64,000 nucleotides of DNA from Candidatus Zymogenaceae bacterium. Lineage in GTDB: Bacteria; Desulfobacterota; Zymogenia; Zymogenales; Zymogenaceae. The translations under genes were made by a program, and so were the position numbers. Each line of letters starts with the position of its first letter. Positions within the stretch are counted from its first letter, which is position 1. The notes under the pieces are model-generated. The model was not told the origin of the DNA and did no database searches. It was given only the letters and a program-made list of their open reading frames with translations. Location: contig JAFGFE010000026.1 in the NCBI GenBank assembly GCA_016931225.1, positions 11,499 to 75,498 of the forward strand. Direction: 5' to 3'. Below, piece after piece: positions 3,755 through 23,780 of this stretch.

Positions 3755-4357
3755 ATATCTCCTCCTTAATTCATCGATGTTTTGCGATTCAGCTCCGATA
3801 CGGATCCGTACGCACCCGAAAGCGGCGCGATCCATACCGTTGTAATGTGTGCCGGCTGGGCGGTCTTGTCACAATGGGCTTTGGACCGCATGCCGGCTCA
3901 TATACACCACAAACGCTCTCTTTTCTTTTTCACATAAGGAGAATAAAGCCGAAAGGGCACAGATGCACATCTCGGTATCACGATAGACGTGAGACGGGGG
4001 AACCTGCGTCGAAATGGGGAAAAACAGTAGGCGCAGATATAGCGGCTCATGAGGCTCATGATTATTCTCCTTTCCAAACACGGGAGGCGTGGCCGTTTCC
4101 AGCCAAACCCTATCGGCCAAGCACCGTGGAGAAGGAGAAAAGCCTCTCCCGAAGGCGACGTATCAAACCACTCTGTCCGGTAAGTCCGTCCACATCTCTT
4201 TAGGCACTGTGGCTCGGAGAATCTGTCTGCTTATGTTTTAAAAAAAACGCGAGACTATGTCAAGATATTTCTGCCCGTGCTCGAAATTTACCCGTCCGAG
4301 ACCCCCACCGTGTCGGTCTCATCCTATGTAATACACTATTTTTAAAACATAAAACGC

Positions 4358-4453: not shown

Positions 4454-4547
4454 AGGGAAAGAGAGCAATTTCTTTCCCGGCCGCACTCGCAAAGGAAGCA
4501 TTGACCGCTGTGAACGATCAGCGGCGGTCGAGGCTTCCTTTTTTTTT
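4454..4547 (+). promoter_or_regulatory. Structured 5' leader of the fdh operon: upstream hairpin (GGGAAAGA..TCTTTCCC), then a GC stem (GGAAGC..GACCGCTG..CAGCGGCGGTC..GCTTCC) followed by T9. Candidate attenuator or riboswitch-like terminator
   Basis: Seen in sequence: nested inverted repeats at 4494-4538 followed directly by ttttttttt at 4539-4547. They sit between the promoter and the start codon at 4615. Confidence 0.45.
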
Positions 4548-4614
4548 GGATACCATATCACCTGTTTTCAACCCATTATTACCCATCAAAAGGGTGAAAG
4601 GAGAGAGAAGCGTT

Positions 4615-7600
4615 ATGGACGTAACCAGACGTGCATTTCTCAAGCTCTCGGGCGCCACTGCTTTGGGTACGGGATTAGGCCTGAATATAACCAACGCGTA
4701 TGCCCAGGCCCTGCCCCTGAAAATCCAGTACGCCCGTGAGTCAACCACTATTTGCCCATACTGCGCGGTGGGTTGCGGTATTATTGTACACACCAAGAAC
4801 GGCAGAGTTGTCAATACCGAAGGCGACCCGGATCATCCCATCAACGAGGGCGCCCTCTGCTCCAAGGGGGGCTCGCTCTACCAGATGGCGGTGAACGACG
4901 CCCGCCTGAAAGTACCCCTGTACCGCGCACCCGGCAGCGACAAGTGGGAAGAAAAATCCTGGGAATGGATGATCGAACAGATCGCCAAGCGGGTGGTGAA
5001 AACCCGCGAGGAGACCTTTACCCTCACCAATGACCAGGGCAAGACAGTCAACCGCACACTCGGAATCGCTTCAATGGGAAGCGCCGCCATGGACAACGAG
5101 GAGTGCTATGTGTATCAAAAATTTCTGCGCGGGTTGGGCCTGGTGTATGTCGAGCACCAGGCACGTATCTGACACAGCGCAACGGTAGCGGCTCTGGCAG
5201 AGTCGTTTGGACGCGGCGCGATGACAAATCACTGGATAGACCTCAAAAACAGTGATTGCATCTTAATAATGGGCAGCAATGCTGCAGAAAATCACCCCAT
5301 TTCTTTCAAGTGGGTACAGCGCGCAATTGAAAACGGCGCAACCCTCATCAACGTGGACCCGAGGTTCACCCGTACGTCGGCCAAGGCGCATATATATGCA
5401 CCTCTGCGGTCAGGATCGGACATTGCATTTCTGGGCGGCATGATAAAATACATCATTGACAGCAATCTATACTTCAAAGAATATCTTGCCGAGTACACCA
5501 ACGCGTCATTCATCCTTAACCCGGATTTCAAGCTCCCCGCGGAAAACAACGGCGTTTTCTCCGGGCTCACCGAGACCCCCACCGGCGGCAAATACGACAA
5601 GTCGACATGGGCGTTCGTCAAGGACGGCAGGGGCGTCCCGGTTCGGGACAAGACCCTCTCCGATCCGATGTGTGTCTTTCAGCTGTTGAAAAAGGAATTT
5701 GACCGCTACACCATCGAAACGGTTTCGAGGGTAACCGGCACCCCGGAAGACAAGCTGAAGACCGTATACGAAACATACGCACAGACCGGGACCCCGGATA
5801 AGTCCGGCACCATCATGTACGCCATGGGCTGGACCCAGCACACGGTGGGCGTGCAGAACATCAGGACCATGTCCATCATCCAGCTGCTTCTGGGTAACAT
5901 GGGCATGGCCGGCGGCGGTGTGAACGCCCTCAGGGGCGAGTCCAACGTGCAGGGGTCTACAGACCATGCCCTGCTGTATCACATCCTCCCCGGCTACCTT
6001 TCCACCCCCCATACCGGATGGCCGACCCTGGACGACTACAAGAAGACCACTGTCGCCTCCGTCTCCACAAAGGACCCCCTCAGCGCCAGCTGGTGGACCA
6101 ACTATCCCAAGTATATTGTCAGCCTCCTTCGGGCCTTCTACGGCCTGAACGCGACGCCGGAGGAAGGGTATCTCTACCTTCCCAAGCTGGACCCCGGCGT
6201 CAACTATTCGTGGCTGAAGATATGGGACGAGGTCTACAAGGAAAACATCAAGGGTGTGTTCGCGTGGGGCCAAAACCCGGCATGTTCCGGCGCACACTCC
6301 AACAAGGTGCGTCAGGGACTCGCCAAGCTGGATTGGCTGGTCAACGTCAACATCTTCGACAACGAAACCGGCTCCTTCTGGCGGGGCCCGGGCATGAAAC
6401 CTGCGGACATCAACACCGAGGTGTTCATGCTCCCCTGCGCGGGATCGGTCGAGAAGGAAGGCAGCATCACCAACTCCGGCCGATGGATGCAGTGGCGCTA
6501 CAAGGCAGTTGAGCCGCCCGGATCGGCAAAACCCGACGGCGACATCATCAGCGAGCTGTATTTCAAGATCAAAGAAGTCATGGAGGAAGAGGGGTCCGTT
6601 TTCAAGGATGCCTTCACAAAACTGACCTGGGACTATGGCCCAAAGGATTTCTTCGGCAAAATGACGGCGTTTGACACTCATTACGCCGCCAAGGAGATCA
6701 ACGGCTTCTTCCTGGAAGACAAAGTCATCAACGGCGTATTGTATTCCAAGGGAGATTTGGTCCCGTCGTTCGGCTCCCTCCAGGATGACGGCTCCACGTG
6801 CAGCGGGAACTGGCTGTACTGCCAGTCCTATAACGCCTCCGGCAACAACGCCGCACGTCGTAACAACAAGGATGAGTCCGGCATCGGCCTCCATTCGGAA
6901 TGGGCCTGGTGCTGGCCGGTCAACCGGCGCATCATCTACAACAGGGCGTCGGTGGACCTCTTCGGCGCACCCTGGGCGCCTCAAAAGCCCGTCATCAAGT
7001 GGAACGGCGCCAAGTGGCTGGGAGACGTCCCCGACGGCGGCTGGGCCCCGATCTACAAGGAAAACGGCTCCGTGAATTCCGCCTCCAAGCTTCCGTTTAT
7101 CATGAAGCCCGACGGCGTCGCGTCGATTTTCGGTCCCGGCAGGGCCGATGGACCGTTCCCGACCCACTACGAACCCACGGAATGCCCGGTAGAGAAAAAC
7201 CTGATCAATCCGGATCAACTTCTCAACCCGACGGTATACCGGTTCGATAAGGAAGACGTCGGAAGCGACCTGGACACGTTTGCGGGGGTATGCGACCCGA
7301 ACTATCCGATCATCGGCACCACGTATCGCGTCAGCGAGCACTGGCAGACGGGTATCATGACCCGCTGGCAGCCGTGGCTGGCGGAGATGCAGCCTGCGAA
7401 TTTCGTGGAAATGAGCGAGCAGCTGGCCGATCTCAAGGGTATCAAGAACGGTGAGAAGGTGCGTGTCACCTCCGCCCGGGGCTCCGTGGACGCGGTGGCC
7501 ATTGTCACCGCCAGATTCAAGCCATTTCTCGTGGACGGCAATACGATACATCAGGTGGGAATGCCCTGGCATTACGGCTGGAGGACCGCCAAAAACGGTC

Positions 7601-7755
7601 AGAACAGTGACCCCCTGAACGCAAAACCGGACGTGTTCACCTACGGTGACTCCGCAAATCTTCTGACCCCCTCCATCGGCGACCCGAACACCATGATTCC
7701 GGAGACAAAAACCTTCCTTGTCAACATTGAAAAACTGAAGGGAGGTGGGGAATAA
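4615..7755 (+). CDS. Formate dehydrogenase catalytic (alpha) subunit, periplasmic, selenocysteine-containing (TGA at 5170-5172 read through)
   Basis: ORFs 4501..5172 and 5221..7755 are contiguous through an in-frame TGA: EHQARI-U-HSATVAALAESFGRGAMTNHW, which matches the FdnG/FdhA active-site context. Tat signal MDVTRRAFLK; N-terminal CxxC..C Fe-S motif; AAAGGAGAGAG RBS before ATG 4615. Confidence 0.93.
5170..5172 (+). other. Selenocysteine (UGA) recoding codon in the fdh alpha gene
   Basis: In-frame TGA flanked by the conserved QARI-U-HS motif. A downstream SECIS hairpin is expected but was not folded here. Confidence 0.85.
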
Positions 7756-11486: not shown

Positions 11487-11741
11487 TTACACGAAGGGCC
11501 ACGCCGGCCCGGACTCCACCAGCACGATCTCCTCGCACCCGGGACACCAGAAGGCCTGCGCCGTCTCGGCGGCCACCACCCCCAGCTCCGGGTCGGTATT
11601 GACCGATACCAGGATGGTCTCCACCAGGCGCAGCTCCGCCCCGCATTCGAAGCAGGTGGCGTAGACGTCCTCGTCGAAATCGATGATGTCTTCAACGAAG
11701 AACTTTATCCCGTCCTTGACTACAATCTCTCCCACTTTCAT
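11487..11741 (-). CDS. Small hypothetical Cys4 zinc-ribbon protein, immediately upstream of fdhD on the same strand
   Basis: 84 aa from ATG 11741 (GGGGGA 6-7 nt upstream). CFEC..CPGC motifs. No family recognised. Confidence 0.4.
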   Translation of the reverse strand: MKVGEIVVKDGIKFFVEDIIDFDEDVYATCFECGAELRLVETILVSVNTDPELGVVAAETAQAFWCPGCEEIVLVESGPAWPFV

Positions 11742-12474: not shown

Positions 12475-14313
12475 ATGAAGTTAGAAAAGTTGATAATATC
12501 AAATTTCAGAGCTTTTAACGGTACTCACGAAATTTCATTCAATGACTTAACGGTATTCATTGGAAAGAATGATATAGGAAAATCTTCAATTCTGGATGCT
12601 CTCGAAATTTTTTTCAATTCAGGTAAAATTGATTCCTCTGATATTAGTATTCACCCAAGTCCAAAAGATAATACTACCAGTAGCATCGGATGTGTTTTTT
12701 CTAAACTACCAGAAGAAATTATCCTTGATGCGAATGCAAAAACATCTTTGAAAGAGGAATATATACTAAATAAAGATGGTTTTTTAGAGATACATAAATC
12801 TTTTAATTTTTCCTCTGCAAAAAATCCAAAAGCTAAAATAATTGCAAAGGCTTACCATCCAACAGAAGAAACCTTTAAAGTATTATTGCATAAAAAGAAC
12901 GCTGATTTAAAAAAACTGGCAGAAGAAAAAGATATTCCAAGCAACGTAGACAAGAGATCAAATGTTGAGCTAAGAAAATTCCTTTGGAGTACTATCGACG
13001 ATTTAAAATTTGACAATGAAGACATCGATCTAGAAAAAGAAGATGCAAGAAAATTATGGGATCAAATTTCGAAAAAACTCCCTCTATTTGCACTATTCAA
13101 AACAGATCGGCCAAGCACAGATGAAGATTCTGAAGTACAAGACCCCATGAAACTTGCTGTAAAGCAGGTAATAAGTGAAATTGAAAATGAATTAGAAACC
13201 ATCAAAGAAAGAATTAAAGAAGAAACTCTTGATGTCGCAACAAGAACGGTTGAAAAACTTAAAGAAATAGATAGCACTCTTGCAGAAGAACTTAAACCAA
13301 CTTTTAAAGAAGAACCAAAGTGGAGTAATATTTTCAAACTTTCACTAACTGATGAAAATCAGATACCTATTAACAAGAGAGGGAGCGGTGTAAGACGACT
13401 TATCCTTATAAGCTTTCTACAAGCAGAGGCTGAAAGAAAACGATCTTCTGAGAATAAAGATAATCTTATTCTTGCTATAGAAGAACCAGAAACTTCACAA
13501 CACCCAGACAATCAGAAACTATTAATCGAGGCACTTGAACAACTATCACAAAAGGAAGGTTATCAAATAATAACAACAACACATGTACCTGCATTGGCAG
13601 GATTAGTGCCTATAAGAAGTATACGGTATATCGAAAAGGCACCAGATAATATAAGACAAATTCAAACAGGTACAGATGACACTGTATTGGAAAAAGTATC
13701 TAATAGTCTCGGTGTTCTGGCAGATAGGAGAGTTAAAGCCATAATTTGTGTTGAAGGTCCCTCAGATGTTAAATATCTAAAGTGTTTTTCAAAAATTCTT
13801 AACAAAAAAGATAACGAAACACCAAACCTAGAGAATACGAATGAAGTTGTGTTCATTCCTATGGGTGGCCGAACTTTACAAGATTGGGTAAACGATAAAT
13901 ATCTTAAACCTTTCGGTCTACCTATGTATTATATTTTTGACAGAGGAGATGAGAATAAGTATGAGGAACAAGCGAATAACATCAATAGTGACCAAGATAA
14001 ATCAATAGCATACATAACTAATGAAAGAGAAATCGAAAACTACTTACATTCATCTGCTATTGAAAAAGCGATTGGAGTTCGAATAGAAATAACTGATACC
14101 AATAAAGTAGCTGAGGAACTCGCAAAACATATTCACTGTAGTGCCCCCAACGCCAAAGAATGGAAAAATTTATCTCCGGAGGAGATAAAGAAAAAAACTA
14201 CCAGATGTAAAAAGAGATTATGCAATGAAGTATTACCATTTATCACATTAAAAATGATTGAAGAAAGAAATGCTATCGAAGAAATTAGTATGTGGCTTGA
14301 ACCATTAAAATGA
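12475..14313 (+). CDS. OLD-family ATP-dependent endonuclease (N-terminal ABC/AAA_15-21 ATPase + C-terminal Toprim); class-1-like stand-alone defence nuclease
   Basis: 612 aa. Walker A FIGKNDIGKSSILDAL; ABC signature/Walker B LILAIEEPETSQHP. The C-terminal AIICVEGPSDV..FIPMGG..IFDRGDEN..NEREIENY block is consistent with Toprim acidic residues. The gene is strongly AT-rich compared with its flanks. Confidence 0.8.
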   Translation: MKLEKLIISNFRAFNGTHEISFNDLTVFIGKNDIGKSSILDALEIFFNSGKIDSSDISIHPSPKDNTTSSIGCVFSKLPEEIILDANAKTSLKEEYILNKDGFLEIHKSFNFSSAKNPKAKIIAKAYHPTEETFKVLLHKKNADLKKLAEEKDIPSNVDKRSNVELRKFLWSTIDDLKFDNEDIDLEKEDARKLWDQISKKLPLFALFKTDRPSTDEDSEVQDPMKLAVKQVISEIENELETIKERIKEETLDVATRTVEKLKEIDSTLAEELKPTFKEEPKWSNIFKLSLTDENQIPINKRGSGVRRLILISFLQAEAERKRSSENKDNLILAIEEPETSQHPDNQKLLIEALEQLSQKEGYQIITTTHVPALAGLVPIRSIRYIEKAPDNIRQIQTGTDDTVLEKVSNSLGVLADRRVKAIICVEGPSDVKYLKCFSKILNKKDNETPNLENTNEVVFIPMGGRTLQDWVNDKYLKPFGLPMYYIFDRGDENKYEEQANNINSDQDKSIAYITNEREIENYLHSSAIEKAIGVRIEITDTNKVAEELAKHIHCSAPNAKEWKNLSPEEIKKKTTRCKKRLCNEVLPFITLKMIEERNAIEEISMWLEPLK

Positions 14314-15335: not shown

Positions 15336-16616
15336 TCATCCCGTCGTCTCCTCCGGGATCGGGGTTCCCTCCGCCGGGAGGAACTGCGCCCGCACCCACC
15401 GCCAGGCGGAGGTCACCCGGGCAACCACCCTAAGATCCGTTACCTGCCGGGAAAGCCCCAGGGCCTCGGCCACCGCCTCCTCGTGTCCCCGGTAGCGGGG
15501 CGGCAGTTCAAAGAGCGTCCGGGAGGCGTCCCCCTCCGTCGGCTCCACGACGGAAGGCCCCCACACTCCCCGGGCCGCCGCCAGCTCCCGGGCCGCCCTT
15601 GGGTACACGACACGGCGGGCCGGCAGCACCAGCCAGGGTCTCGTTCGAAACACCGGGAACTCCCCCTCACACGAAAGACGCCCGAAGCTGCGGCGGGGGA
15701 CTCCTTCCATCTCCCGGGCGGCGAAGGCGGTCACCGGTAAGAGTCGTAAGTCATCAACGGACGCCGCGCGGTTTCCCAGAAGATCGCCGACGATCACAAC
15801 GCCGTATACGGTCATGCGCATGGACCACCCGGCCAATCGATACGCCAGGTAGAGGACGATGAGCACCGCCACAAGCCCCAGGATGGGGCTGATGATCGCC
15901 GTAACCGCCAGCATCGCCAGCACCGCAAGCCGCAGCCCCTTGAGCACCACGCCGGTAAACGGCACGGGGGAGATCAGCGTCAGCGCCTCCACGACGGCGC
16001 TGGCCAGCCACACCATCAGGAATATTCCGCCCGCGAGTATCGAGGAGACGACCACCGCGATGCCGCCTACGATCCCGCCGACACCGCCCCCTTCCCCCGT
16101 CCCGTCCGCCGCCCAGGCCGTTCCCGGCCCCAGAAATCGAAAGAGGCTCGACACCGCCTCGCCCACGGGCTGGGTCAGCACCTCCACCAGCCCCGGCACA
16201 ATGGCCGCCAGGGCCAGGGCCGCCAGCACGTACTGCTGGGCCAGGGCCACGCCGTCCAGCACCTTTTTCGAGGGGGGATACGCCTCGCCGATGGTGTCGT
16301 TGAGCCCCACCAGCACCAGGAGTATCGCCAGCAGGATCAGAAAAACCGGCGAATAGAACCACCGGACGCTCTCCCCGTCCCGGACCGCGTTGATGTAGTG
16401 ATAGCTCCCCACCACCATCAGCCCGAGGAGCGGATTGACGGCGATGCCCACGGTCTTGGACAGCTCCCGGGATATCGCCGTTCCCCGGTCGTACATATCG
16501 GTGATGTCCCGGGCCGCCTCGCTCACCGCCTCCAGTTCCTCATCCTGGGAGGGGGCGGCCGCGGCCACGCCCAGAGACAGCGCCGCAACAACCAGAAGCG
16601 CCACAACTCGTTTCAT
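15336..16616 (-). CDS. Hypothetical secreted/polytopic membrane protein (signal peptide, Gly-rich TM helices, Arg/Pro-rich C-terminal tail)
   Basis: 426 aa, no recognised family, on the same strand as and directly upstream of the protease gene. The ORF-track end of 16616 and my reading of the sequence differ by 1 nt. Confidence 0.55.
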   Translation of the reverse strand: MKRVVALLVVAALSLGVAAAAPSQDEELEAVSEAARDITDMYDRGTAISRELSKTVGIAVNPLLGLMVVGSYHYINAVRDGESVRWFYSPVFLILLAILLVLVGLNDTIGEAYPPSKKVLDGVALAQQYVLAALALAAIVPGLVEVLTQPVGEAVSSLFRFLGPGTAWAADGTGEGGGVGGIVGGIAVVVSSILAGGIFLMVWLASAVVEALTLISPVPFTGVVLKGLRLAVLAMLAVTAIISPILGLVAVLIVLYLAYRLAGWSMRMTVYGVVIVGDLLGNRAASVDDLRLLPVTAFAAREMEGVPRRSFGRLSCEGEFPVFRTRPWLVLPARRVVYPRAARELAAARGVWGPSVVEPTEGDASRTLFELPPRYRGHEEAVAEALGLSRQVTDLRVVARVTSAWRWVRAQFLPAEGTPIPEETTG

Positions 16617-16759
16617 ACGTCACCCCGCCATACAGGCCGACTCACAGGTCACATGCGCCTATCGCGTGTTCCTCTTATAATACCACGACCGTTTCTGCGA
16701 GGAAACGGTTTTTCGCCCCTCCCCGGGAGAGGGGCGACTTTCTTTCGCCCCTTTTTCCC

Positions 16760-16809
16760 TTGACAGGTCCCCGCAAGATTCCTATAATATGATGGCCAAC
16801 ATACGTTGG
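16760..16809 (+). promoter_or_regulatory. Perfect consensus sigma70 promoter (TTGACA-N17-TATAAT) abutted by a CCAAC-ATAC-GTTGG palindrome; candidate lexA promoter/operator
   Basis: Seen in sequence: -35 at 16760-16765, -10 at 16783-16788, inverted repeat at 16796-16809. This is about 200 nt upstream of the lexA ATG. Confidence 0.5.
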
Positions 16810-17007
16810 GGCTGTAATCATGATACCGGGCGGCAGGGGGGGCCTATCGACGGCGACCGGCAGCCTCCGGTTGTGTGAGAGTAACACGGTCGTACCCCGC
16901 CCCTTCCACAGCGGCGGTGCGGGGTCTCCCTCGGTATTGCGGGCAACGGCGCGCATGCGCCCCGGTGCCCGGAAGAAGTTTTTCGCCGCGGGGTGAAAGG
17001 AGGACAG

Positions 17008-17682
17008 ATGGTCGAGCGACTCACCGACAGGCAGCAGGAGGCCCTGGATTTCATCCGGGCGTACACCGAAGACCGGGGCTACCCCCCCACGATGCGGGAG
17101 CTGGCCGACGGCCTGGGCCTTTCCGGCCCCAAGGGCGCCAAGGAATACATGGATATCCTGGAGCGCAAGGGATACATCCGGCGGGAGCCGGAGAGCTCCC
17201 GGGCGCTGACGATTATCGACGGCGGCCGGGGGGAGGGGGACGCCGGGCCGGGTCTCTTCTCCCGCCTGGAGGGGATCCCGGTGGTCGGGCGGGTGGCGGC
17301 GGGGATGCCCATCACCGCCGTGGAGAATATCGAGGGCTATTTCACCCTGGCCGGCAGGCGCACCGACGACCTGTTCATGCTCCGGGTCTCGGGAGACAGC
17401 ATGATCGAGGCCCACATCGCGCCGGGGGACATGGTGCTGGTCAATCCCCTGTCCCGGGTGGAAAACGGGGACATCGTGGTGGCCCTGCTCGACGGCGAGG
17501 CCACCGTCAAGCGATACAAGACCAGCCACCGCCCGGGGCCCGAGGGGTCCGGGGTGGTGCTCTACCCGGAAAACCGAACCATGCAGCCCATCTTCGTGGA
17601 CGGCGGGATGGATTTTTCCATCGTCGGCAAAGTGGTGGGCGTGGTGCGGGACATGGAGGGGGATCTGGTGATGCCCGAATAG
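17008..17682 (+). CDS. lexA: LexA repressor (wHTH + S24 peptidase)
   Basis: MVERLTDRQQEALDFIRAY N-terminus; catalytic Ser in VSGDSM and catalytic Lys in ATVKRYK. AGGAGGA RBS. Confidence 0.93.
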   Translation: MVERLTDRQQEALDFIRAYTEDRGYPPTMRELADGLGLSGPKGAKEYMDILERKGYIRREPESSRALTIIDGGRGEGDAGPGLFSRLEGIPVVGRVAAGMPITAVENIEGYFTLAGRRTDDLFMLRVSGDSMIEAHIAPGDMVLVNPLSRVENGDIVVALLDGEATVKRYKTSHRPGPEGSGVVLYPENRTMQPIFVDGGMDFSIVGKVVGVVRDMEGDLVMPE

Positions 17683-17987: not shown

Positions 17988-18239
17988 ATGCCGTTCGTCA
18001 TCGGAGAGTCCGTTACGGTGGGCGCCGTCTTTGGCGACGGGCGGGTGAATCCCAAGTGGTTCATCTGGCGGGGGGAAAAATATCCGGTGGACGGCATCAC
18101 CTACACCTGGCGGGACCAAGACGGACGGGACACCGTCCACCACTTCGCCGTGCTGGCCTGCGGCAACCTCTACGAGCTGTGCTACCGCGAGCGGCGGATG
18201 AACTGGTTTCTGGCGTCGGTGGAGGTGGAGGGGGGGTAG
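17988..18239 (+). CDS. Hypothetical small protein (83 aa) downstream of lexA
   Basis: Protein-like composition with Trp/Tyr-rich content; GGAG 9 nt upstream. The competing antisense ORF looks spurious. Confidence 0.4.
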   Translation: MPFVIGESVTVGAVFGDGRVNPKWFIWRGEKYPVDGITYTWRDQDGRDTVHHFAVLACGNLYELCYRERRMNWFLASVEVEGG

Positions 18240-18242
18240 ATA

Positions 18243-19358
18243 TTATTCCCCGTCAAACTCTTCCGGGTACTGCTCGTGGAGATACGTCAACAGCGCCTCG
18301 GCGGCGATACGCACGCCAGTCGGATTCCAGTGGGTGTCCCCCGGATAGTAAATCAGATCGTTGATATCGTTCTTTTCACGATATGCCATATAGTCCGGGA
18401 GGACATTCACGCACGGGACCCCTCGACGCGCAAGCTCCTTTTCGAGGCGCGGGATAAAATCATGGTACGGTCCCGCCCCGGCAAGGTCGCCGTATATCGT
18501 GTATTTATCAGGTATGGGCAAAAAGATCATTTCGATGTTGTATTCCCGTTCCAGCACCTCCCGGATTTCCATGATAACGTCCGCCATGACGGCGACGTCT
18601 TCCTGCGAGAATTCCAGATTGTACGCGTCTACCTCGGCGTATGAAAACAGCATATTCGGTTTCAGGGAATATTTCGGCGTCAGATCGGGCAGCTCGTGAA
18701 ACAGAAAGAACCTGAGCGTGGACAAACAGGAAACAAGCCACCGGGTTCCCTGGAAGTTCAAAAACGTATACTCGATCTTGTCCTTATGGAGATAGATCGC
18801 TTCGAGGTGCGTGTCAATCTCCTGGAGAAAGGAGGACGCCTCCTCCCGCGTCTCTGTTTCCGAAACGACGTCTTCTTCCGGGGCGGGCGCCATTTCCGGG
18901 ATCTCCCGTGCGATCAGGCGTTCCACCTTCTCCCACACGAGAAAGGTTTTTCCCTTGGGAGCATATTGGAGCTCGGACAGCATGACAAGGGGGTTGTTTC
19001 TCCCCTGTGATCTGAGCGCCGCGTATACGATGATCGATGTGTTTTTGCCGGTCTCCCGTGAGAGTTCATACCCGAGGAGCTCATCATTGAACGCGACAAA
19101 GCTGTCTCCAAACAGAACGACGTCGGCATCATTCACCTCCACGAACGTCTCGAGGTCCGACCAGGGAAACTCGTCCGGGATTTTTGATTTGAACACCGCC
19201 ACCTTGTTCAGGTCATACAGGTCCCCATAGTGCGCGCCGTGACCGGTGACCGATTTTCCCATTTCCGGGATATGGCTTGCCACAAGGAGAAAAAGGAAAT
19301 ACAGCGCGGCGATGTAAAAAAGACCCTGGACGATTATCGATTTTTTCCCGTTCAGCAT
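18243..19358 (-). CDS. AlgJ/AlgX-like SGNH-fold polysaccharide O-acetyltransferase partner (periplasmic, N-terminal anchor)
   Basis: 371 aa; a DTHWNP motif near the C-terminus and an N-terminal TM segment; adjacent to and co-oriented with the MBOAT gene. Confidence 0.65.
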   Translation of the reverse strand: MLNGKKSIIVQGLFYIAALYFLFLLVASHIPEMGKSVTGHGAHYGDLYDLNKVAVFKSKIPDEFPWSDLETFVEVNDADVVLFGDSFVAFNDELLGYELSRETGKNTSIIVYAALRSQGRNNPLVMLSELQYAPKGKTFLVWEKVERLIAREIPEMAPAPEEDVVSETETREEASSFLQEIDTHLEAIYLHKDKIEYTFLNFQGTRWLVSCLSTLRFFLFHELPDLTPKYSLKPNMLFSYAEVDAYNLEFSQEDVAVMADVIMEIREVLEREYNIEMIFLPIPDKYTIYGDLAGAGPYHDFIPRLEKELARRGVPCVNVLPDYMAYREKNDINDLIYYPGDTHWNPTGVRIAAEALLTYLHEQYPEEFDGE

Positions 19359-19367
19359 GGCTCTTCA

Positions 19368-20813
19368 TCAAAAATTGAAATAAATAAAGTCCGTCCCGTG
19401 GAATACACCGAGGAGGAAAAAGGAAAGAACGAACACGGCCCAGATGCATATCTTCACGGAAAGGGGCGTCTGTTGTTTTACTCTTTCGATATACAGGGGG
19501 GCGCTTTCGGACAGCACCTCCCAGACAATCAGGCATCCGACAAGGACGAGAGAAAGGACGAGGTTGAACACGCCCAGGCCGACATCAAGAGAACCGGAAA
19601 AAAACGGCCCCCGGCCGACGCCCGCGATCAGGGCGACGGCGTCGTACATGGACGCCGAGCGAAAGAATATCCAGGCGAACGTTACCAGGTGAAACGTCAA
19701 AAGAATCTTGCCCGTTTCATTCAGCCACGGTCTCTTTGCCGGCGGAGCTGTGGGGAACACCCGGGATTTCTTCGCCGTGAGGTGATGGACGACATAATAG
19801 AGACAATACAAAAGCCCCCAAAACACAAAGGTCCAGTTCGCGCCGTGCCACAGGCCGCAGATGAAAAAGGTGACAAAAATATTGAAAAAGAGCCGCGCCC
19901 TGGTCACCCGGTTCCCGCCGAGGGGAATATATATATAGTCCCTCAGCCACCGCGACAGGGAGATGTGCCACCGTCTCCAGAAATCGGGAATGGACCTTGC
20001 CAGATACGGCCGCTGGAAGTTCTCCATAACGTTGATCCCGAGGATCTGGGCGCTCCCGATGGCCATATCGGTGTATCCGGAAAAATCGCAGTATATCTGA
20101 AAGGAATAAAAATATATCGCGAGCACCAGGGCCAGGCCCGTATATTCATCGTAGTTGCCGTACACCTCGTTGACATACATGGCCAGGCGGTCGGCGATGA
20201 CGATCTTTTTGAACAGACCGAAAAAGAACCGCTTCAATCCCTCTTGCACCATCTCCGCATCGAAACCGGGGGTCTGTTTCAACTGCGGTATGAGAGATCC
20301 CGCCCGCTCGATGGGCCCGGACAGCACGATCGGGAAAAAGGAGATGAAAAGGGCGAAGACCCCCGGATTTTTTTCGGGGGAAACCTGCGTTCGATAGACA
20401 TCGACGAGATAGGCGACGGCGAGAAAGGTGAAAAACGATATCCCCGTCGGCACGGCAACATGGGAAAAGGATTTCGAGAACGTGACCCCGAACAGGTCGA
20501 GGAGGCCGGCGGCGCTTTCCGCCAGAAAACCGGCATACTTGAAATAGACGAGGGGCAAAAGCACACAGACGACGGACAGGACGAACACGGCCTTTCGGAC
20601 CGCCCCGTGCAGGGGCCTTCCCATGACGAGCCCGGCGGCGTACGACGCCGCGGTCACGTAGAGCAGCACGAGCACGGGCACAATGCCCCAGTACAGATAG
20701 AAGTAGTAGCCGAACAGCAGCAGAAACAGCCATCGAATCCGCTGCGGCAGGAGGAAATAGATGCCCGCCGCAACGAAGAACAGCATGATGTACAGAAGAG
20801 AGGAAAGTATCAT
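19368..20813 (-). CDS. MBOAT-family membrane-bound O-acyltransferase (AlgI/DltB-like)
   Basis: 481 aa polytopic protein with FWRRWHISLSRWLRDYIYIPLGG (the conserved MBOAT His) and LWHGANW. Confidence 0.88.
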   Translation of the reverse strand: MILSSLLYIMLFFVAAGIYFLLPQRIRWLFLLLFGYYFYLYWGIVPVLVLLYVTAASYAAGLVMGRPLHGAVRKAVFVLSVVCVLLPLVYFKYAGFLAESAAGLLDLFGVTFSKSFSHVAVPTGISFFTFLAVAYLVDVYRTQVSPEKNPGVFALFISFFPIVLSGPIERAGSLIPQLKQTPGFDAEMVQEGLKRFFFGLFKKIVIADRLAMYVNEVYGNYDEYTGLALVLAIYFYSFQIYCDFSGYTDMAIGSAQILGINVMENFQRPYLARSIPDFWRRWHISLSRWLRDYIYIPLGGNRVTRARLFFNIFVTFFICGLWHGANWTFVFWGLLYCLYYVVHHLTAKKSRVFPTAPPAKRPWLNETGKILLTFHLVTFAWIFFRSASMYDAVALIAGVGRGPFFSGSLDVGLGVFNLVLSLVLVGCLIVWEVLSESAPLYIERVKQQTPLSVKICIWAVFVLSFFLLGVFHGTDFIYFNF

Positions 20814-21180
20814 CGCGTATTATCCAAAACGGGTGTTTTTCGGCGCATGTGCGGATTCGGCGAAACGGGCCTTCGGTTTTTCGAAAAAACCATCGGCGCA
20901 CACAGCCCCGCGTGCGGATTGCATCCGGGCGCGCATCCCACACGATGCCGTTTCTCCCGGAAGCACGGAAAACGGGTGGATTTCGTCCGTTCCCCGCGAT
21001 TTTTTATTGTTTTACAATGGTTTTGAAATGTACAACCATCACCGCCGTCTTGTCAATCTTTTTTCTCGTTTAGCGGCACCCTCGTTTTTTCCCGGGCGCT
21101 GCACGCCGCGCCACGCGGGGGGCGGAGAAGCCTGTTTTGAGCGGCGGGGGAGGGGAAGGGTAAAATCCTTCCATTACTCA

Positions 21181-21192
21181 TAGCATATGCTA
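21181..21192. promoter_or_regulatory. Perfect 12-bp palindrome TAGCATATGCTA next to a TAAAAT -10-like hexamer, ~40 nt upstream of the AT-rich orphan gene; candidate operator
   Basis: Seen in sequence. Confidence 0.35.
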
Positions 21193-21229
21193 AAATAGAT
21201 AAATATATTTTTGAAAAATACGTGAGTAG

Positions 21230-22453
21230 TTGATTATGTTAGAAGAATTTTTTCTTACCACAGGTATTAGGTTTATTTATCGGCTATGGGAAAAGCTTGC
21301 AAAAAAATTTAAAATTAAACGCGGCAAACTAATTCACGTTATATTCGAAGAAGAATATGCCGAAGAATTTTATTCTTTTATTCCCTTTGTGGATATTATC
21401 AAATACAGGGACGATCTTTTACAAATTCGTGATGCGTGGATTATGTTCAAAGGAGATAAAAATCCTTTTGGAAAGAAGGAGACAACAACATACAAATACT
21501 CTTTGAATAGAGACTCAATAACTCCAAAAGAAATAAAACACAGCGAAGAAGTTTCTTTCGGACATGTATGGCTCCCGCAAAACCTTTCTGAAATAGTAGA
21601 ATCAAAAGATGTTCATCTTTTTTTCAAGGATGGTAAAGACAAAGAACACTCCTACTGCTTTGAAAAAGAAAACTTATCTTCTTTGAGACGTTGGTTTTCA
21701 ACTCGACAGATTAAAAACAGTGACTACATCGTTCATATTATATGCGGAACTGAAATAACCCGCGACCACAGGGGCAGGATTATCGATAATAAACCCAGCC
21801 TCTTTTTCACTAACCCAAGAAAACGAGGAGATGTTCCTGTTAAGGAATTTGCATCTAATCCTCTTCCTGTTTCAATGATTCAACCTTCGGATTCCACCAC
21901 TAACATTGATGAGGTTCTTCCTCTTGAAATAATAAAGTATCGCTACTGCCCGGAAGACCCGAATTTTTTTCTTTTTTTTGTTAAGAATTATCACCCACAT
22001 CAAGCTGCTGTCACCGATCGAGGAGTTTTACAATACGGTGATGAACATTTTGAACTTCGTGGTAACTATTACTCTACCGTAATAAAGTATAAACATAAAA
22101 TTAGTTCCACCAAAGATTTCGAAGATATCCATCATGCAATGTCCGTTCTTGGATTAAAAGAACTCCCTATAGAGGCCGCTATTAAATTTGCCGGGAAAAA
22201 AGAAATTCTGGAAGGCGAAAAACCAGCTCCTTATTACGCGAATAATGGCATTATTCCTTTCGGTCAAACTTTTTGGGTTGTAATGAAAATAAGAGATAAA
22301 AAAGGTAAGGAACTATTGGGGAAAAGCGTAAAAGTCGTTTTGAAAAACGGCGGTATGCCTGTGAGTCGCCCCTTCGAATTCTTAGTCGGGACCGAAAAAG
22401 AACTCATTGAAAAGCACACTACTAAGATTTCTTTTTCTCCTTTTGTCCTCTAA
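21230..22453 (+). CDS. Hypothetical protein (407 aa), strongly AT-rich orphan gene inserted immediately upstream of dinB
   Basis: Long clean ORF (Lys/Asn/Ile/Phe-rich) in an AT-rich island; TTG 21230 or ATG 21236 start; no recognisable domain. Confidence 0.6.
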   Translation: MIMLEEFFLTTGIRFIYRLWEKLAKKFKIKRGKLIHVIFEEEYAEEFYSFIPFVDIIKYRDDLLQIRDAWIMFKGDKNPFGKKETTTYKYSLNRDSITPKEIKHSEEVSFGHVWLPQNLSEIVESKDVHLFFKDGKDKEHSYCFEKENLSSLRRWFSTRQIKNSDYIVHIICGTEITRDHRGRIIDNKPSLFFTNPRKRGDVPVKEFASNPLPVSMIQPSDSTTNIDEVLPLEIIKYRYCPEDPNFFLFFVKNYHPHQAAVTDRGVLQYGDEHFELRGNYYSTVIKYKHKISSTKDFEDIHHAMSVLGLKELPIEAAIKFAGKKEILEGEKPAPYYANNGIIPFGQTFWVVMKIRDKKGKELLGKSVKVVLKNGGMPVSRPFEFLVGTEKELIEKHTTKISFSPFVL

Positions 22454-22481: not shown

Positions 22482-23780
22482 ATGACCACCACACCCGACA
22501 GCCCGTTACCCAAAAGCTCCTTCCCGGGGCCGAGGCACTACCGCCCCGGCGGGGAGATTGAGCGGGTCGTGCTGCATTTGGATATGGACGCCTTCTTCGC
22601 CCAGGTGGAGCAGGTCACAAACCCCCATCTTTTGGGAAAGCCCATCGCCGTGGTGGGGAGCAAAAAGCGCACGGTGGTGGTCACCTCCTCGTACGAGGCG
22701 AGAAAATACGGCGTCAAGACCGCCATGACCATCGGCGAGGTGAGGCGTCTCTGCCCGGAGATCATCTTCGTCCCCGGCAACAACCGGAAATACATCGACA
22801 CGTCCGTGCGCATCATCAACGTCCTCAAGGAATTCAGCCCCGACGTGGAGGTCTACTCCATCGACGAGGCCTTCGTGGACATCACGGGCTCCTTGCGCCT
22901 CTTCGGCGGGTCGGAGGCCATCGCCCACAGCATCAAGGAGCGCATCCTTGATGAGGTGGGGCTGACCGCCTCCATCGGCGTTGCCCCCAACAAGCTGGTG
23001 GCGAAGATCGCCAGTGACCTGAAAAAGCCGGACGGCCTGGTGATCCTCACGGAAGCCGACGTCCCCGGCCTGATGGAGACCCTCCCCATCGAGGAGGTCT
23101 GCGGCATCGGCCGGCGCACCGCCGCCAAGCTCCACTCCCTGGGCGTCTCCACCTGCGGCGAGCTGGGACGCTACCCGGTCTCGGTGCTCACAAAAAAATT
23201 CGGCGTCATCGGCGAATACCTCCACTGCATGGGCAAGGGCCTCGATTCCAGCCCCGTCATCCCCGCAGGGCAAGAGGACGACGTCAAAAGCATCGGCCAC
23301 TCCATGACGTTTCCCTTTGATGTGGAGGACAGAGACGGCCTTTCCCATTATCTGCTGCTCCTCTCGGCGAAGGTGGGGCGCCGCGCCCGGCGGGCGGGAT
23401 GCGCCGGGCGCACCGTGGCCCTCTATGTCCGCTTCGCCGACTTCACCGGAGTGGGCAGGCGGACCACCTGCCACCACCACATCCAGCTCGACGCCGACAT
23501 CTATGAGACGGCTCTTGAGATCCTCTCCTCCATCGAGCTGACCCAGCCGGTGCGGCTTCTGGGGGTGAGCCTCTCCAACCTGACCCATACGGGACGGCAG
23601 CTCCCCCTCTTCTCCGGGGAGCGGCGGGAGTTCTTATTGGCCCGCGCCATGGACTCCATCCGGGATCTCTTCGGCGACGACGCCGTGGCCTACGCCTCCA
23701 TCACGGACCGCATCAGCGAGGCGGGGGTCATCTCCCCGGCGTGGCGTCCCGCGGGACCCCGGCGGGTGGACCCGCGATGA
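22482..23780 (+). CDS. dinB: DNA polymerase IV (Y-family translesion polymerase DinB)
   Basis: VVLHLDMDAFFAQVEQ..SIDEAFVDITGS..GIGRRTAAKL motifs. The ORF frame opens at 22407 inside the AT-rich island; the start is most likely ATG 22482 or the downstream GTG. Confidence 0.9.
   Translation: MTTTPDSPLPKSSFPGPRHYRPGGEIERVVLHLDMDAFFAQVEQVTNPHLLGKPIAVVGSKKRTVVVTSSYEARKYGVKTAMTIGEVRRLCPEIIFVPGNNRKYIDTSVRIINVLKEFSPDVEVYSIDEAFVDITGSLRLFGGSEAIAHSIKERILDEVGLTASIGVAPNKLVAKIASDLKKPDGLVILTEADVPGLMETLPIEEVCGIGRRTAAKLHSLGVSTCGELGRYPVSVLTKKFGVIGEYLHCMGKGLDSSPVIPAGQEDDVKSIGHSMTFPFDVEDRDGLSHYLLLLSAKVGRRARRAGCAGRTVALYVRFADFTGVGRRTTCHHHIQLDADIYETALEILSSIELTQPVRLLGVSLSNLTHTGRQLPLFSGERREFLLARAMDSIRDLFGDDAVAYASITDRISEAGVISPAWRPAGPRRVDPR

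Follow-up and report, generated by a model that had tools for sequence, protein, structure and literature searches.

An exact sigma70-type promoter and a probable LexA operator of the CCAAC-N4-GTTGG type upstream of lexA in a Candidatus Zymogenaceae bacterium

The 64,000-nt stretch of contig JAFGFE010000026.1 analysed here (positions 11,499 to 75,498 of assembly GCA_016931225.1, from Candidatus Zymogenaceae bacterium; hereafter, the window) contains a lexA gene preceded by an exact TTGACA-N17-TATAAT promoter and by the inverted repeat CCAAC-ATAC-GTTGG (Table 1). Judging from the sequence and from its conservation, this region most likely corresponds to a strong, autoregulated lexA promoter of sigma70 type that heads an SOS cassette, with the palindrome acting as the LexA operator over the transcription start, a reading to which we give a probability of about 0.78. 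Each of the 13 other distinct orthologous lexA promoters with readable sequence (14 with the window) has the same promoter and dyad at the corresponding place. A preliminary description of this DNA had proposed the repeat as a lineage-specific LexA operator related to the GAAC-N4-GTTC type, and phylogenetic footprinting over these 13 promoters, in which the arms are kept and the spacer and flanks are free to vary, supports this.

Table 1. Features of the lexA region and of the genes that follow it (positions in the window; nt, nucleotides; aa, amino acids; RBS, ribosome-binding site; ORF, open reading frame).
Feature	Position	Strand	Remarks
T-run, UP-element-like	16752-16756	+	immediately 5' of the -35; putative UP-element function
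-35 hexamer TTGACA	16760-16765	+	exact in all 14 orthologous promoters, window included
-10 hexamer TATAAT	16783-16788	+	17-nt spacer from the -35
Putative LexA operator CCAAC-ATAC-GTTGG	16796-16809	.	extended GCCAAC-N4-GTTGGG, 16795-16810; covers the predicted transcription start, ~16795-16796
5' leader, about 198 nt	16810-17007	+	GC-rich, not conserved
GC hairpin	16941-16970	+	followed by a T-run (16979-16983) after an 8-nt gap
RBS AAGGAGG	16997-17003	+	lexA ATG at 17008
lexA, 224 aa	17008-17682	+	LexA_DNA_bind and Peptidase_S24 domains; TIGR00498
ImuB-C-type small protein, 83 aa, standalone	17988-18239	+	weak DUF6504 match; second cassette gene
Insertion between imuB-C and dinB, 4.2 kb	18243-22453	.	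absent in L097 and L105
AlgX-like SGNH gene	18243-19358	-	within the insertion
MBOAT gene	19368-20813	-	within the insertion
Low-GC ORF, 407 aa	21230-22453	+	within the insertion; no Pfam or PADLOC match
dinB/polY, Y-family polymerase	22482-23780	+	Pfam IMS, IMS_C and IMS_HHH; ancestral third cassette gene

The lexA promoter scores 12/12 in a consensus scan, and no other exact TTGACA-N17-TATAAT occurs in the window, in agreement with its earlier recognition as a perfect sigma70 consensus; when up to one mismatch is allowed, four matches are found against 0.17 expected. In the relatives, whose loci are designated by L numbers, the -10 reads TATAAT, TACAAT, TATACT or TAGAAT and lies 17-18 nt from the -35, except for L104 in which the spacing differs. 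The hexamers thus occur at 17±1 nt and are conserved in orthologs, as in promoters of the sigma70 type. TTGACA is preceded by 4-7 consecutive T in 10 promoters of the clade as well as in L104 and L105; this T-run is missing in the distant relatives L009 and L013. In the closest strains, the sequence between the -35 and the -10 drifts while TATAATATGATGGCCAAC....GTTGGG stays fixed.

Two GC-rich hairpins, each with a T-run, were also observed directly 5' of the lexA -35 (16690-16747, plus strand; ACCGTTTC..GAAACGGTTTTT and CGCCCCTC..GAGGGGCG+CTTTCTTT). They look like plus-strand terminators, yet no plus-strand gene lies upstream, the neighbouring gene (15336-16616) being divergent. Both are kept in L081 and L086 and are missing in L001 and L093. 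A TATAAT occurs at 16667-16672, and the hairpin region could represent a tiny transcript or an insulator.

The relatives were obtained from a genome scan, which gave the close relative L001 (a metagenome-assembled genome, or MAG, of an uncultured Thermodesulfobacteriota whose LexA is 69% identical to that of the window), from a metagenome scan (L081, L082, L083 and L086, with LexA 92-94% identical, and L085, 63%) and from a protein search that revealed a clade at 57-69% LexA identity, for which loci L093-L100, L104 and L105 were fetched. The protein search also retrieved a LexA identical to that of the window from a MAG named 'Deltaproteobacteria bacterium' at NCBI. Among relatives with readable upstream DNA, LexA identity to the window protein ranges from 45 to 94%.

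In the window, the palindrome begins 7 nt after the -10 (intervening sequence atgatgg); the repeat is as first described, but the distance had been given as 8 nt. In the 13 relatives' promoters, the dyad begins 3-9 nt after the -10. At 92-94% LexA identity, it reads CCAAC ATTT GTTGG (L081) or CCAAC ATAT GTTGG (L082 and L086), and at 64-69% CCAAC GCCC GTTGG (L001), CCAAC ACCA GTTGG (L093), CCAAC CTAC GTTGG (L105) or CCTAC ACTT GTTGG (L104). At 57-60%, it becomes GTAAC ATAT GTTGG (L094-L096) or GTAAC ATAC GTTCC (L097), and at 45% GGTAAC AAAT GTTTGC (L009) or GGTAAC AAAA GTTGGC (L013), these last two loci sharing the recognition helix GPKGAKKFLDILERKG and having the dyad 3' of the -10 and 5' of the RBS. 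All 14 promoters have the GTT core, and all but L104 (TAC) have the AAC core. In the non-redundant set of loci with a GAKEY helix, each arm position has 1.9-2.0 bits of information, a spacer position 0.72 and a position of the 3' flank 0.66. A dyad of fixed spacing thus abuts the lexA core promoter, and its arms are more conserved among orthologs than its spacer and flanks, as is usual for operators. Since the upstream neighbour varies by locus (membrane protein, radical SAM, NAGPA or unknown ORFs), the promoter-dyad element belongs to lexA.

The identification of the downstream gene as lexA, already made in the preliminary description, is secured by its two domains (76 bits for PF01726 with a cut-off of 23.7, and 102 bits for PF00717 with a cut-off of 23.3) and by a score of 199 bits against the TIGR00498 equivalog (cut-off 111). 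The scissile bond A98-G99 (VAAG), Ser131 (GDSM) and Lys168 (TVKRY) align to A84-G85, S119 and K156 of E. coli LexA, and the residues of the cleavage site and of the Ser/Lys dyad are invariant between the window protein and that of L001. From its sequence, the window LexA is complete and looks cleavable. Its recognition helix spans approximately P41-R53 (GPKGAKEYMDILER). When aligned with that of E. coli (SPNAAEEHLKALA), the window helix (GPKGAKEYMDILE) differs at the positions corresponding to S39, N41, A42 and E44, the residues S/N/A/E at 39/41/42/44 being replaced by G/K/G/K, with Glu45 kept. These positions include residues reported to contact bases in PDB 3JSO. Helix and arm sequences go together in part, GAKEY helices being found with CCAAC in both arms and GAK(Q/K/R)F helices with GTAAC in the left arm; this co-variation of the recognition helix with the half-site is suggestive only.

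From the sequence we infer a transcription start near 16795, binding by LexA and induction by damage. In the proposed mechanism, the near-ideal promoter (T-run, TTGACA, 17 nt and TATAAT) would drive lexA and the downstream imuB-C and, ancestrally, would also have driven the Y-family polymerase gene dinB/polY. Because the palindrome starts 7 nt after the -10, it would span roughly +1 to +15. A LexA dimer, with one winged-helix domain per arm, would bind it and block RNA polymerase; upon DNA damage, RecA-stimulated self-cleavage of LexA at A98-G99 (Ser131/Lys168) would free the operator and allow the promoter to fire. The half-site CCAAC (GTAAC in sister clades, with the common core AAC-N4-GTT) would represent a lineage variant of the GAAC-N4-GTTC type, presumably read by the divergent helix GPKGAK-E/Q/K-Y/F.

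One close known counterpart of the dyad is the Gram-positive (Cheo) LexA/DinR box, which is CGAAC-N4-GTTCG in B. subtilis and Actinobacteria and AGAAC-N4-GTTCT in its Dehalococcoides-type form. In both, the dyad is 14 bp long, its 5-nt arms flank a spacer of 4 nt that is often AT-rich (ATAT, ATAC), the core is AAC...GTT, and the site lies at or just downstream of the -10 of a lexA that is autoregulated (here by prediction). They differ by the fourth base from the centre, which is G in the Gram-positive box but C here (CAAC/GTTG) and T in the sister clades (TAAC). The window site therefore lacks the GAAC/GTTC tetranucleotide arms and keeps the 4-nt spacer and the AAC...GTT core, so that the initial observation of a single base difference per arm was accurate. 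The recognition helices differ as well (SSSTVHGHLARLE in the Gram-positive LexA, GPKGAKEYMDILE here), and the host belongs here to an uncultured Thermodesulfobacteriota or 'Deltaproteobacteria' lineage. With the E. coli SOS box CTGT-N8-ACAG, the window site has in common a LexA dimer on a dyad at the lexA promoter, relieved by RecA-stimulated autocleavage, as predicted here, and a LexA whose cleavage site and Ser/Lys dyad align; half-site and spacing are different.

The Geobacter system resembles that of the window by its gene content, namely a cassette of lexA, a standalone ImuB-C of ~83 aa and a Y-family polymerase, and, as seen in Geotalea, by a promoter in which TTGACA, -10, operator and RBS follow one another. 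In contrast, the operators are unrelated (CCAAC-N4-GTTGG here, GGTTGTCAAGTGTCAACC in Geotalea), the polymerase gene of the window is split off by a 4.2-kb insertion, and the leader between operator and RBS is long and variable. The Geobacter box, as Jara et al. reportedly found in 2003, occurs upstream of lexA but not at the promoters of recA and other classical SOS genes; Geobacter would thus be an earlier example of an operator that serves essentially a single operon. A GGTT...AACC dyad is absent from positions 16640-17010 of the window and present in Geotalea (L102), the Geobacter LexA box being quoted as GGTT-N10-AACC in PMC8565304; the work of Jara et al. is cited both there and in PMC6511836.

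The dyad scan upstream of lexA recovered the expected sites in positive controls, that is (A/C)GAAC-N4-GTTC(T/G) in Paenibacillus, Staphylococcus, Clostridia and Bifidobacterium loci, and the Geobacter box GGTTGTCAAGTGTCAACC between the -10 and the RBS in Geotalea uraniireducens (L102). It also detected other dyads upstream of lexA, such as TGAAC in Brocadia, GGTAC-N4-GTACC in some other Planctomycetota, TCTAC-N4-GTAGA in Syntrophaceae and TCAAC in Methylomirabilota/Rokubacteria. As uncharacterised clades have variants of their own, the window site appears as one more state of the xxAC-N4-GTxx LexA dyads. The Methylomirabilota/Rokubacteria MAGs have TCAAC-N4-GTTGA 50-90 nt upstream of lexA in 10 loci, with the same CAAC-N4-GTTG core as the window but with T/A as outer base, an unrelated helix (TARAAFDHLRALE) and a LexA only ~42-47% identical; their dyad probably arose in parallel from the same ancestral box. 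Loci with this dyad include L018, L024, L027, L029, L033, L039, L080, L091 and L092, and lexA genes of Deferrimicrobiaceae have it as well as those of Methylomirabilota/Rokubacteria. We know of no publication on TCAAC-N4-GTTGA dyads at lexA.

Several observations weigh against the palindrome being a LexA operator. The CAAC-N4-GTTG core is expected 0.67 times per 64-kb window and at least one copy was found in 44 of 100 shuffles, so that its presence in the window, taken alone, is within chance expectation; likewise, 14-mers with up to two mismatches are no commoner in the window than by chance (11 found against 29.7 expected). The significance of the palindrome thus depends on where it lies and on its being conserved among orthologous promoters, and on nothing else. 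Scanning the window and ~120 kb of the relatives' flanks with a position weight matrix (PWM) derived from the orthologous sites revealed no second strong site; in the window, the lexA site scores 23.3 bits and the next best 10.1. A lineage-specific box is therefore supported at the lexA promoters, where the site is conserved, and a regulon-wide SOS box was not seen in the window or in these flanks, DNA that does not carry recA, uvrA or ssb. The co-variation of helix and half-site is weakened by the asymmetry of the sister-clade operators, which have GTAAC on the left and GTTGG on the right. Finally, in L104 (LexA 64% identical), TTGACA and TACAAT are separated by 10 nt and the left arm is CCTAC. 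This may correspond to a non-functional or decayed promoter-operator, to a 7-nt deletion or to an assembly error. Separately, the sole extra operator-like match in the regions scanned, CCCAACATAAATTGGT, was observed in L093 (1760-1775) between a divergent glutamate symporter gene and a UDP-glucose dehydrogenase gene, upstream of the latter; at 14.4 bits it is weaker and may be due to chance.

Explanations other than a LexA operator have to be weighed against the same data. That the palindrome is a chance neighbour of a real promoter would fit the expected frequency of its core, but this is effectively refuted by the 13 other promoters, which have it at the same position within surroundings that cannot be aligned. 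The dyad could also be the operator of a regulator other than LexA, given that the site was seen at no other SOS gene in the window or in the relatives' flanks and that LexA is its predicted ligand. This is unlikely, however, because the site travels with lexA whatever the neighbours, no other regulator gene is conserved nearby, and the architecture and the AAC-N4-GTT core match the lexA operators of other clades; moreover, lexA autoregulation is the rule in characterised bacteria (PMC8565304). Quite unlikely too is an action of the repeat in RNA, as a 5'-terminal stem-loop stabilising or regulating the lexA mRNA. The repeat does lie at the predicted start of the transcript and forms a hairpin of 5 bp with a 4-nt loop in the minimum-free-energy fold, and conserved arms with a free loop sequence would also suit a hairpin. 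Yet the changes in the arms are not compensatory: one to two pairs are broken by each of GTAAC/GTTGG (L094-L096 and L013), GTAAC/GTTCC (L097), GTAAC/GTTTG (L009) and CCTAC/GTTGG (L104). Besides, a stem of only 5 bp is weak, the AAC...GTT core that characterises LexA boxes persists, and it is the distance to the -10 that is fixed, that to the RBS varying from 15 to 633 nt. Recognition of DNA by a protein is thus favoured by the non-compensatory arm changes, the kept core and the fixed distance to the -10.

The remaining alternative concerns the ~200-nt leader between the operator and the lexA ATG, which the preliminary description had considered as a possible small RNA. A small RNA or a riboswitch-like element would be consistent with the length and GC-richness of the leader, and with its hairpin followed 8 nt later by TTTTT, similar arrangements occurring before the RBS in L081 and L082. 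We nevertheless regard it as very unlikely, and the claim is not upheld. No Rfam match was found at the gathering threshold in the leader when the whole window was searched, no hit with an E-value <1 was obtained in a permissive scan of 16600-17050, and nothing was found at the loci of eight relatives; the fold of 16795-17010 is no stabler than that of shuffled sequences (z = -0.22). Little sequence is shared between leaders, that of a locus with a 94%-identical LexA having only 40 nt in common with the window at 80% identity. The distance from operator to ATG is 15 nt in L009, 20 in L013, 56 in L086, 84 in L095, 107 in L097, 178 in L093, 180 in L001, about 198 in the window, 229 in L081, 430 in L082, 491 in L096 and 633 in L094; strains whose LexAs are 92-94% identical thus have leaders of 56, about 198, 229 or 430 nt, and more distant ones have 15-20 nt. 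Long leaders are made of degenerate direct or inverted repeats. Direct repeats of varying copy number were found in L082 (2294-2724), L001 (2772-2952) and L085 (1-320), the L082 leader having a 51-nt unit in triplicate, at intervals of 76-92 nt, and that of L001 a triplicated unit with GGCAAAACGCTATT, and repetitive extragenic palindrome (REP)-like inverted elements (GGGGCCCCCAAAAGGCCTGCCTTTTGGGG) in L094 (9367-10000). The leader thus does not have the properties of a structured leader RNA or small RNA. Because its length and sequence vary, with no Rfam match and no excess folding, it is better seen as a variable, insertion-tolerant region than as a conserved RNA.

These comparisons suggest a hotspot of insertion or expansion between the operator and the RBS. 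In the window, the leader contains no repeats and has no dispersed copies elsewhere (blastn), and Tandem Repeats Finder detected nothing in the leaders. L096 is also listed among the relatives with repeat-bearing leaders. The GC hairpin and T-run just before the RBS are common to the window, L081 and L082 and are not found in L086; attenuation at this place is possible and is an unexplained minor point. The additional palindrome GTGT-N7-ACAC noted earlier near 16880 does exist (16873-16887), but its arms are only 4 bp long and it is not conserved.

The gene that follows lexA encodes a small protein which, by its position, a hidden Markov model (HMM), its predicted fold and its conserved C-terminal Trp, is most likely a standalone ImuB-C of the GSU0042 family. 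Its ORF is 57-63% identical to the clade copies, and an HMM built from these detects such an ORF right after lexA in 31 of the loci fetched, which belong to several phyla and include ORFs of Geobacter type; the family comprises 516 cluster representatives. In Geotalea, lexA, orf84 and dinB are tightly packed, the ORF being located at 4001-4255 of L102. The AlphaFold model of the window protein is all-beta, with a predicted local distance difference test (pLDDT) score of 93 for an alignment of 44 sequences (58 with 3 sequences). Foldseek revealed no significant structural neighbour in the PDB (best E = 0.28), and nothing was found in the literature on DUF6504. A standalone all-beta protein of ~80 aa is thus found right after lexA, and its W73 fits the published description. 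Standalone ImuB-C, with GSU0042 as prototype, is described in PMC3765255, and the lexA–imuB-C–polY cassette in PMC3765255 and PMC6511836. The lexA–small ORF–dinB unit is therefore not a new observation.

The genes lexA, an ORF of 81-84 aa and dinB directly follow one another on the same strand in L097, L105, L102 and L103; insertions of various kinds separate the cassette genes in L093-L096 and the window. The order lexA, imuB-C, (inserts), dinB, an ORF of ~240 aa and purL is common to the window, L093 and L097. The ancestral unit was therefore likely a lexA–imuB-C–polY(dinB) cassette with one operator. In the window, the polymerase gene is no longer contiguous with lexA and would not be co-transcribed with it, dinB being located 4.2 kb downstream behind two genes of opposite strand. 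Mismatch motif searches and the PWM detected no operator upstream of the window dinB, in agreement with the earlier failure to find a second copy there by eye. The likely reason is that one operator served the ancestral cassette, from which the 4.2-kb insertion has split dinB off. Since the low-GC ORF ends 28 nt before dinB, dinB probably rides on the transcript of that ORF.

The literature searched gave no account of a LexA box of CAAC or TAAC type; the putative box is thus a hitherto undescribed sequence variant within a mechanism that is already well understood, and the known mechanism of LexA is left unchanged by these findings. We propose, only tentatively, that LexAs with the helix GPKGAK-(E/Q/K)-(Y/F) form an undescribed subfamily in uncultured Thermodesulfobacteriota and allied MAGs, that they recognise the motif (C/G)(C/T)AAC-N4-GTT(G/C)(G/C), that their regulon may be essentially lexA–imuB-C–polY and that polY/dinB may here have escaped SOS control. 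LexA is unusual among global regulators in that its binding motif has repeatedly changed in evolution, and each new motif is a data point on the co-evolution of repressor and operator. The present one adds a graded series within one LexA family from lineages without a cultured model, going from GAAC to CAAC/TAAC with the core AAC-N4-GTT fixed, alongside substitutions in the recognition helix. The motif also offers a practical handle to find SOS genes in these MAGs, and the split cassette a natural experiment on the need of dinB for control by LexA.

Other features were detected elsewhere in the window. A 35% GC island (12-14 kb) carries a gene for a 612-aa ATPase of the AAA_15/OLD family (12475-14313, plus strand), for which the best PADLOC match is AriA (5.6e-66), with Old and GajA also matched; from these similarities it is probably an acquired anti-phage defence gene. 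The sole Rfam match at the gathering threshold in the window is a molybdenum cofactor (Moco)/tungsten riboswitch (4051-4231, minus strand, 71 bits), which faces the genes of the small and large subunits of a [NiFeSe] hydrogenase (3835-2558 and 2530-857) and is divergent from formate dehydrogenase genes; if controlled by it, the hydrogenase operon would be an unusual target for this riboswitch. Finally, the molybdopterin formate-dehydrogenase ORF (5221-7755, plus strand) matches its Pfam profile only from position 99 and has a 223-aa ORF just upstream (4501-5172), so that 4501-7755 (plus strand) probably represents a single fdhA gene interrupted by an in-frame selenocysteine TGA.

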